DNA of 4,906 nt, taken from the IMG/VR virus record IMGVR_UViG_2541047439_000021. One strand, written 5' to 3'. Position numbers: made by a program. This document shows, piece by piece, positions 1 to 3,000 of the stretch. The DNA is from a virus (Duplodnaviria > Heunggongvirae > Uroviricota > Caudoviricetes). The first letter of the stretch is position 1, and each line of letters starts with the position of its first letter.

Positions 1-3000
1 TCATCCACGGCAGTGGCACCACACGTCAAACATTCGTTTCACAACTTCACGGCAGTAGAAGCCGTCGACATCACGGGTCAGGTCGTAGCGATTGCCGAAT
101 GTCTTGCGAACCCAGAACTCAAAAGCCGTATGCATGTATCACCTCCGTTGCATTGCGCGTAATTTTTTCAGGCGCATTTCCTGCTCAGTGCCCGCCAGAA
201 TTTTGCGGTACTCCTGTTGGTCAATATGTTCGAACAGGTTGTTGAACTCACCAATGCGTACCCGTCCGGAGCGCCCGTCCATGCGTCGAAAGAACACTGA
301 GTGCTGAGTACTGCGAGTAATCACCACAGGGTATCCGGCTCTGTCCGTGTATATCTGACCACGTTGAATCAGAGCGAACATTCCTTTATCCCCAGCGGAA
401 AAGCGAATACAGAATAAATGCCACCGCTATTGCAACTCCAACTGCGGTGAATGCTTCAGGCCAATTCATCATTTCACCTCCTGCGGCGGCTCCGGTAGCG
501 GCATCCAGTGGGTTACTTTCGATGCCGGTTCTTCCCCATTGTCAGTAACTGCCCACCATTTGTTTCTCGAACAATCGTAATACCCTTCGAAGGTATCGCA
601 CTCAGTCCAGCCGTAAGACTTCCCCCAACACCAAACATACTGTTTATCGTTCGGCATTCGCTCACTACAGCTTATCCAACCATCCGGAGTTACCGGAGAG
701 TTGCCAGCCTTGCGCATGGCAATCTCCATGATTTCAACCATATCTCCTGGTGGAATTTTACAATGCTGACCAATATGCCTCTGCTGCCTGGCATATTCGA
801 GGATGTGCTCCAGCTTGATACGATTAATCATGATTTATCTCCCTGAAGCATGGCTTCGCGGCAGTCGTTCCAGCCTTCAGCATAATCACTATACGCAAGA
901 GGCCAACCGTTTCTGTATTCACGCGGCAACTTATCAGGCACTACCAGCGCTGGCGGCGCGGAGAATAGTGGTTTAGGTGATATTTCCGCACGTTTTGCGT
1001 ATGCTTCAACTGTGTCAGGGTTAAACAGGATTATGTTTTCACCGCATTCCCACGCTATCGGTTCTGCTTCCAGCGATGCCAGTGCAATTTCATAAGCACG
1101 GCGCTCAATATTGTCTCGAACGTCCAAGCTGCCTATGCGCTCTTTGATTTCTTTAATCAGTTCTTTGTCGGTAATAGTGGTCATGCCGCGTTTCCTTCTT
1201 TCTTATTAACAATTACACCGTCATATATTTCATTAAGGTGCCCTCTCAACTCCATGCGCCTTAATGCAGACAACATGTAATCGCATTCAACCTGCTTATT
1301 TCCAGTAAATGGCTTATCGTCAGGATTACCCCAACAGCAATTACCCTTGGGCCACCCATGTACTTTCCGTACTCTTCCGTTAACAACGTGAAGTAATCCC
1401 CAGCCAGGTGGTAAATCCTCAATTGAAATAATTCCCGGCTCACTAATAAAGAATCGCCAGTCGCCCATTCCAAGAGACGGATTTTTACGAAAACGCTTTT
1501 TTCTATCTGCCAACAAGTCAGCACGAGAACATTTCGCCAATCAGGCATGATGCTGAATTTCTGAATCCCATAGCATCTGGCTGTTCTCCGGTACTGGTTA
1601 CAGCTATAAAGCGGTCATGAAAACAAACCTTGAAACCGTTGCGCTTAAGGAACTTGTACGCAATCTGACAGAGTTCGCGGTGTGTTAACGCCATATCACT
1701 CTCCTTTGATGCGAATGCCAGCAAGCCAGTTTCTTATGCCGATATATTCAGCGTTCCTGAAACCGCTTTTTACATATATAAATGGCAAGCGAAGATTGTG
1801 ACCATTGACTGCCAGGTAGTCTTTACAACCCTGTTCGGTGAAACAGCAGGTAACGAATTCATCAATATCTTTCACAGCAACGCGCCGCCATTTTTCTGGT
1901 GGCTCTCGAAAGTTTTCATGAAGTAGCTCGAGACGACGACTATGGCGTTTATTGGCTTCATTGCCATCTTCGTCAACCCAGACAATCCGGTCATGGTCAT
2001 AATCAGCATCAACAGCGATTTCGCGCTTTTGATACACACAAAACATGGGATCTGACGTTATTCGATTGTCCTGTGTTCGAATATTTTCACCGATGATGCC
2101 AAACGAATCTGGTGCAGATTTTGTCTGCATCTCTTCGATACGTTCAGCCATCGCAGCACACTCTTCAAAGTTGCTTAATGCTTTTCGCTCCCATTCGGCG
2201 CATTGTTTTTCCAGTTCTGCTATGCGCTTACTTCCATCCGCGATTACTCCCTCGTAATATTCACGCTGCTCGTTGAGTTTTGATTTTGCTGCTTCAAGCT
2301 CAACACGCAGCTTCCCAACCGTAAGCGCAATCTCCTCGTTCTCCTGGTCGCGGCGTTTGATGTATTGCTGGTTTCTTTCCCGTTCATCCAGAAGCGCCAG
2401 CGCAACATTTGGATTAAAGGCAGCAATAAATTCAGCGTTTGCATAAGCCTGAACATCTGTTTCAACCAGGCAGTTAACATGACATTCCGCAATCACACCA
2501 CCGGGTTCTCCTTTCCATTTTTGGCAAACAAAAACTCCTGTTAAATTGCCGTGCTGGTTAACAGATGTATGCCCTACGATGTAGCTTCCTTTAGTTGCTT
2601 TCTCTGCCTTTTCACGCAGTGCCTGATAGTCAATCTTGCTCATTTTTCTCTTCACTCCGGTATACAAGGATTACTACGCCCCCTCTGCTAATTGCGCGAG
2701 CTGGATCCCCTGGTTCCATGCCGTCAATACCGAAGGCTTCGAAAAATGCATCTATTGCCTTTTGGCGTTGCTCCTGCTTACGGCGTTTATTCCATTTTTT
2801 CATGAACAACAGTGACAGCCATCGTCCGCTGCAGAACATGATGTAGAAATAACCAAGGAGCGCTAGGCCGGTGTTCAGGGCTGTATCGATCGTTATCGTG
2901 GTGTTGATGTTCACTTCACACCTCTCTGTTTGTTGATAAGTTCAATATCCTGCTGGCAACTGGCGCAAGCTCTGCATCCACGAACAGCCAGGCGTCGCCG

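Follow-up and report, generated by a model that had tools for sequence, protein, structure and literature searches.

Is the region between positions 1181 and 1694 on the minus strand of IMG/VR virus record IMGVR_UViG_2541047439_000021 one gene, two genes or the remains of a gene? The record belongs to the Caudoviricetes, and the whole stretch of DNA that was analysed (the window) is 4906 nucleotides (nt) long. The answer reached here, with high confidence in all its parts together, is that these 514 nt are a frameshift pseudogene, that the intact form encodes a distant relative of the MmcB-like proteins of the PD-(D/E)xK superfamily, and that the broken allele arose by an AGA->T replacement and has moved within Escherichia coli O157:H7.

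All genes of the window are carried on the minus strand. The first frame is a 58-codon open reading frame (ORF; 1518-1694 with its stop), which runs from ATG 1694 to TGA 1520-1518 and encodes MALTHRELCQIAYKFLKRNGFKVCFHDRFIAVTSTGEQPDAMGFRNSASCLIGEMFSC. Its Shine-Dalgarno (SD) sequence, GGAG (1701-1704), sits within the 3' end of the upstream Ead/Ea22-like gene, whose TGA (1696-1698) lies 1 nt before ATG 1694. Ribosome binding was assessed by pairing the 20 nt 5' of each start with the anti-SD sequence; the real starts of the window gave duplex energies of -5.5 to -12.9 kcal/mol, and the 58-codon ORF gave -9.1 kcal/mol. The second frame, offset by +1, extends without a stop from TTG 1540 until TGA 1183-1181. 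The two frames have 23 nt (1518-1540) in common, and the stop of the second overlaps, in an ATGA (1181-1184), the ATG of the next gene, which encodes 118 amino acids. Candidate starts of the second frame lack an SD by anti-SD pairing (TTG 1540, +1.2; TTG 1516, +0.1; TTG 1513, +0.6; ATG 1468, -2.4 kcal/mol). A preliminary description of the DNA had drawn the locus in the same way: the outer coordinates, the stop at 1518, the frame open from 1540, the 23-nt overlap with its +1 offset, the TTG without an SD, the internal ATG with a poor one and the 3' end coupled to the next gene all hold on the minus strand. This two-frame arrangement is far beyond chance.

The nature of the arrangement becomes clear from comparison with the orthologous locus. 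A 701-nt segment around it is 100% identical to the chromosomes of E. coli O157:H7 EDL933 and many other O157:H7 strains, and to phages phi330, YYZ-2008 and Stx2a_WGPS6. The DNA of Shiga toxin 2 (Stx2) phage 1717 and of phage P7 is near-identical and 2 nt longer; with matching flanks, both encode one 516-nt gene of 171 codons in a single frame (gp06 and Upf89.0, respectively). Base-by-base checking of the alignment leaves one DNA difference between the window and phage 1717 gp06, the replacement of AGA at nt 156-158 of the gene by a single T (window 1539-1540). The intact gene reads CTG ATA GAG GCG AAA (L-I-E-A-K), whereas the window reads CTG ATT GGC GAA ATG and continues to the premature TGA (1518-1520). 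In context, ...CTGAT AGA GGCG... has become ...CTGAT T GGCG..., a net loss of 2 nt outside any homopolymer that destroys codon 53 (GAG, Glu). The two frames translate to two halves of one 171-residue protein, with zero amino-acid differences away from the lesion. In the 58-residue product, residues 1-52 are native (Asp40 at 1575-1577), whereas the last six, GEMFSC (53-58), come from the wrong frame; native residues 54-171, including Lys55 (1532-1534), follow unchanged in the +1 frame (1181-1537), so the frameshift event is recent. An intact orthologue at the same locus and a lesion that breaks a conserved reading frame are what identify a frameshift pseudogene. A gene split by prophage decay had been proposed, and phage 1717 gp06 and P7 Upf89.0 bear this out, as do 324 close homologues that each span both frames as one protein. 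The proposed single-base indel gives way to the 2-nt loss, and the expected joined product of about 175 residues to the actual 171. A simple origin by (AG)2 slippage was tried and rejected: phage VT1-Sakai could have carried the intermediate CTGATAGGCG but has CTGACTGGCG, so the mutational path stays a complex replacement, although no search was aimed at the intermediate.

Sequencing or assembly error, with the true DNA intact and the 2-nt loss an artefact, had also been raised. A frameshift seen in a single window is the classic signature of a base-calling error, and nothing else speaks in its favour. Alleles were counted with 53-nt queries in which every 28-nt seed spans the lesion. The window allele was found in 215 of 5426 complete E. 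coli genomes, at 254 places, all chromosomal and all 100% identical; five phage records carry it as well. These genomes are independent and come from many laboratories and sequencing platforms. The lesion is a complex replacement outside a homopolymer, and a derived form of it, in which C replaces T at 1540 (CTGAC--TGG, the sub-variant of VT1-Sakai/Sp15), is fixed in 51 further genomes. The population data exclude an artefact, and its probability is practically nil. The intact site is the more common form, with 928 places (213 of them on plasmids) in 732 of the same 5426 genomes, and with 129 records in the phage collection against the five that carry the window allele. The excess of places over genomes for the broken allele means that some genomes have two copies.

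Among the matches listed, essentially all genomes with the window allele are O157:H7. The exact 58-residue product is indexed in 5514 assembly blocks and occurs at two prophage integration sites, mlrA/yehV (with a 428-residue integrase) and sbcB (with a 392-residue integrase); the window itself, with its wrbA-side sequence, is a third setting. The presence of the same broken allele in different prophages and at different chromosomal sites points to module exchange between co-resident prophages. The allele is inherited and moved among prophages within the E. coli O157:H7 lineage.

A frame offset of +1 with a 23-nt overlap, followed by an open, uncorrupted frame with a coupled 3' end, is also what programmed +1 ribosomal frameshifting to a functional protein of about 170 residues would need. 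The geometry is shared with prfB-type recoding, and the likeness ends there. Read from its sequence, the overlap, AUU GGC GAA AUG UUC UCG UGC UGA C, contains neither a slippery nor a hungry site of the prfB kind (CUU-UGA-C), and the absence of anti-SD pairing upstream means that there is no SD-like stimulator. A single frame encodes the protein in all distant homologues and in the 732 E. coli genomes with the intact site, so the shift is recent and arose by mutation. The frameshifts in other phages lie at different positions, so that no recoding site is conserved, and the joined product would still be without the Glu53 codon. The preliminary description had called recoding the less likely course; with the shift derived from an in-frame ancestor, it is very unlikely indeed.

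What did the intact gene encode? Its 324 close homologues are all annotated as hypothetical, are single proteins of about 160-176 residues and come from Enterobacterales. A profile search extends the family to 3217 representatives at 50% identity, and by tblastn the domain turns up in 641 phage records, among them those of Vibrio, Klebsiella and Cba120-like virulent phages. In PHROGs the intact protein falls into families 9263 and 631, of unknown function, with a weak match to a 'DNA repair protein' family. PHROG 16308, a family of 58 positions whose match covers residues 1-55, seems to represent the truncated product. Across 28 sequences there is no variation at D27, E37, D40, E53 or K55; across 35 sequences, with identities as low as 33%, D40 still does not vary, and conservation of E53 and K55 is 90% or higher. 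An AlphaFold2 model of the intact protein (predicted local distance difference test, pLDDT, 79.9; predicted template modelling score, pTM, 0.75) places a helix at 5-18, strands at 22-25, 41-45 and 48-54, a helix at 58-65 and a strand at 80-85, the a-b-b-b-a-b order of the PD-(D/E)xK core. In the model D40 opens strand 2, and E53 and K55 close strand 3. The Foldseek list against PDB, all of it above E 0.001, is dominated by PD-(D/E)xK nucleases. A weak PD-(D/E)xK hint had been read from the window before; it stands for the intact protein, which has D40, E53-x-K55 and the fold, and the motif reading itself is corrected.

The closest known relative was found by profile. A narrow family profile reached PDB entry 3dnx (SPO1766 of Silicibacter pomeroyi) at E 0.28 only, and a broader one at E 3.6e-4. 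In the hhalign alignment (probability 97.6%, E 3.4e-12), the D and ExK of 3dnx stand opposite D40 and E53-x-K55. The 3dnx fragment is itself a Pfam PF06319 (MmcB-like) domain (E 3.8e-32, 111.5 bits against a cut-off of 22), and DUF1052/PF06319/3dnx is catalogued as a PD-(D/E)XK family (PMC3424549). Homology to PF06319 is thus detectable by profile and by whole-domain structure, though the gathering threshold is not reached. Judged by sequence profiles and predicted fold, the intact protein belongs to a distant, uncurated sister family of the MmcB-like (DUF1052/PF06319) proteins within the PD-(D/E)xK superfamily. With D40 at the start of strand 2 and E53-x-K55 at the end of strand 3, metal-ion binding and DNA cleavage are its most likely functions. 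Caulobacter MmcB is described as a PD-(D/E)XK endonuclease under SOS control whose role is protection against mitomycin C and cisplatin (PMC9578287).

The kinship has clear limits. Identity between the MmcB-like proteins and the intact phage protein is about 21%. The phage family has additional conserved C-terminal motifs (GMGDWRF, LP.GWGLL, KPF..NKQAE and SALRR), and its genes belong to the early exo-xis region of gamma-proteobacterial phages and prophages, whereas MmcB is a chromosomal SOS gene of alpha-proteobacteria (PMC3424549, PMC9578287). The window copy is also broken, unlike the MmcB-like proteins. The archaeal resolvase Hjc (PF01870) and minimal PD-(D/E)xK nucleases (AHJR-like, YraN/UPF0102 and the R2 element endonuclease domain) share the a-b-b-b-a-b core and the D...ExK signature, and the Foldseek list of the intact protein repeatedly includes structures of Hjc and of the R2 endonuclease. 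Among 35 family members scanned against Pfam, all matches were sub-threshold: Hjc in 23 (best E 1.3e-4) and MmcB-like in 11 (best E 2.9e-4). An identity as a Holliday-junction resolvase, suggested by the Hjc matches, was demoted, because structural and profile evidence favours the MmcB-like family by a wide margin. A PADLOC scan of the intact protein found nothing, and a reading as a defence system was dropped for that reason. A phmmer search with the intact protein against PDB sequences returned noise only, and a literature search for Upf89.0 found no paper. RefSeq calls P7 Upf89.0 (NC_050152.1, 1529-2044) a 'minor tail protein', and 'adenylosuccinate synthase' is the name given to several phage homologues; both are probable misannotations, at odds with the PD-(D/E)xK fold evidence.

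The lesion removes the catalytic motif from the window copy: the Glu53 codon is destroyed, Lys55 and all that follows are no longer in frame, and translation meets a stop at codon 59. The consequences are as follows. (i) With AGA (codons 52/53) replaced by one T, the Glu53 codon is lost and Lys55, together with the 117 residues that remain, falls out of the reading frame. (ii) Ribosomes still load at the strong SD and should make a 58-residue fragment that keeps helix 1 and strands 1-3 as far as residue 52. (iii) Without Glu53, Lys55 and the residues beyond, the fragment should be unable to form an active site. (iv) The 3' 357 nt, having no usable start, would be untranslated or at most marginally translated by weak reinitiation. 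(v) Because ribosomes stop 334 nt upstream, coupling through ATGA to the 118-residue gene would be lost, with possible polarity. An inactive fragment, a silent 3' part and lost coupling are what we infer from the lesion. On the evidence of its sequence, the window copy is a dead relative and not a functional member of the PD-(D/E)xK superfamily.

Might the two pieces instead be made separately, a 58-residue peptide and a C-terminal fragment of about 110-119 residues, functional together or each on its own? The strong SD of the 58-codon ORF and the intact downstream frame are compatible with this. Two in-frame TTG codons (1516 and 1513) lie 1-7 nt past the stop, so that termination-reinitiation is conceivable; TTG 1540 is an alternative start, and gene callers predict a 111-residue product from TTG 1513 (protein cluster P0061, 645 member sequences). 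Against a split gene, no homologue outside the clonal allele has these boundaries, Glu53 is on neither fragment, and D40 and K55 are on different ones. The candidate starts lack an SD, and the Sakai variant has CTG in place of TTG 1540, so that even the broken alleles do not all keep this start. The 3' part is unannotated in RefSeq, and the gene is dispensable and independently broken elsewhere. A working split gene is therefore quite improbable.

Several points do weigh against the pseudogene reading as a whole. The N-terminal 58-codon ORF is very probably still translated, so that 'no product' is too strong. The downstream frame is fully open with its residues unchanged, which fits a recent lesion and is compatible with residual use. 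The EDL933 RefSeq annotation gives the 58-residue protein (WP_001356547.1) as an ordinary coding sequence and leaves the rest blank. On the side of the intact protein, there was no Pfam match at E<=1, no NCBIfam match reaching threshold and no Foldseek match to PDB at E<=0.001, and its presumed nuclease activity is inferred from fold and motif only. In the records for phi330 and YYZ-2008 this DNA is given as two or more hypothetical proteins. The Stx2a_WGPS6 record (AP012539/NC_049945) labels this very same locus, H3V27_gp09, 'hypothetical protein (pseudogene)'. The locus is an ordinary prophage pseudogene, already flagged so in that public record, and it resembles other frameshift pseudogenes of resident O157:H7 prophages in its typical small-indel decay of a dispensable accessory gene. 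A 95-residue ORF in the third frame (1261-1548, minus strand) lies over the dead part; some assemblies list it as a gene (L009, 4147-4434; L013, 4227-4514), very probably a false prediction that the frameshift has produced.

How much does a phage lose with this gene? Other lesions of it are found. Phage 2851 carries a different one, a 5-nt deletion of nt 403-407, and phiSTEC801 has three deletions (nt 273, 354 and 393-394); truncated or doubly shifted forms of the product also occur in the protein database. At least three distinct lesions are present in O157-associated Stx prophages. A junction query, made of the last 300 nt of the Ea22-like gene and the first 300 nt of the next gene, aligned in one piece through position 324 in P27, PA2, PA28, VT2phi_272 and many Stx2a phages. 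Those phages therefore lack the gene, and the Ea22-like stop abuts ATGACCACTATTACC... The gene that follows the junction in P27 is unrelated to the window pseudogene (E = 17) and weakly related to the 118-residue gene (E = 3e-4). Absence at exact gene junctions marks a facultative cassette that a phage can do without. The gene is dispensable, and many Stx phages are without it.

More elaborate accounts of the repeated breakage than neutral decay can be imagined: selection against an active nuclease in polylysogenic enterohaemorrhagic E. coli, a role of its own for the 58-residue stub, or a self-mobilizing nuclease cassette. If the first were true, the intact nuclease might cut co-resident prophage or host DNA, and breakage would be favoured; the last is suggested by presence or absence of the gene exactly at gene junctions next to ea22. 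Taken together these ideas are improbable. Proteins of 240-245 residues, mostly from Salmonella, have an Ead/Ea22-like N-terminal segment (PF13935) fused to the nuclease-like domain (P0091, P0093, P0104 and P0009). Such fusions may indicate a functional link between Ea22 and the cassette, or merely recombination at the junction.

The locus has little weight for biology at large; the added value lies in the fold and family assignment of the intact protein and is modest. The widespread PHROG 9263/631 family (641 phage records; about 3200 clusters at the 50% identity level) gains a tentative label as a distant MmcB-like PD-(D/E)xK protein, and the exo-xis region of Stx phages gains a further testable enzymatic candidate. 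The locus merits uniform annotation as a pseudogene in place of a 58-residue 'hypothetical protein' with blank DNA or spurious ORFs. The 2-nt lesion and its T/C sub-variants can serve as simple lineage markers for modules exchanged by recombination between the Stx1, Stx2c and wrbA-site prophages of O157:H7.

The genomic neighbourhood is that of a lambdoid early-left block. The upstream neighbour is the Ead/Ea22-like gene (1696-2643; 315 residues; PF13935, E 2.4e-41), a marker of the exo-xis region. A library scan of the window proteins placed a DUF4222 gene at 139-381, a DUF551 gene at 469-831, a DUF4752 gene at 2630-2914, a TraR/DksA zinc finger gene at 2911-3132 and an AntA antirepressor gene at 3180-3809. 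Full prophages show the gene order kil-gam-bet-exo-...-TraR-Ea22-[broken gene]-...-xis-int, the exo-xis block. This region is transcribed early from pL and is poorly characterized (PMC8614690). The downstream 118-residue gene (828-1184) has no Pfam match and is annotated 'similar to 933W L0065'; L0065 is described as the detached C-terminal domain of a Phi24B-type Ea22 (PMC8614690). It is intact in the window. It is annotated as N- and C-terminal halves in phage 2851 (L005, 2114-2470), its counterpart in phage 1717 has 44 residues (L001, 2119-2253), and in Stx2a_WGPS6 it is labelled a pseudogene (L003, 2117-2473).

The window as a whole is a mosaic. Positions 1-2645 match VT1-Sakai, phi330 and YYZ-2008 at 99.5-99.8%, and the part from about 2640 to 4906 corresponds to the wrbA-side end of VT2-Sakai/Sp5 and takes in a YmdF-like 'general stress protein' (4800-4906); neither the 5426 complete E. 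coli genomes nor the 50,697 phage records yielded a contiguous match to at least 80% of the window. Directly upstream of the AntA antirepressor start at 3809, the minus strand at 3850-3938 gives a full-length match to Rfam sRNA-Xcc1 (RF02221; 69.1 bits against a gathering score of 53, E 1.5e-11). Between the antirepressor and the chromosomal general-stress-protein gene, non-coding DNA on the plus strand at 4172-4264 holds a 31-nt unit, TGTTTGGGGCACTATTGGGGCAAAATGTGGT, three times in tandem, two copies identical and the third 71% identical, with a 22-nt inverted repeat nearby at 4100-4146.
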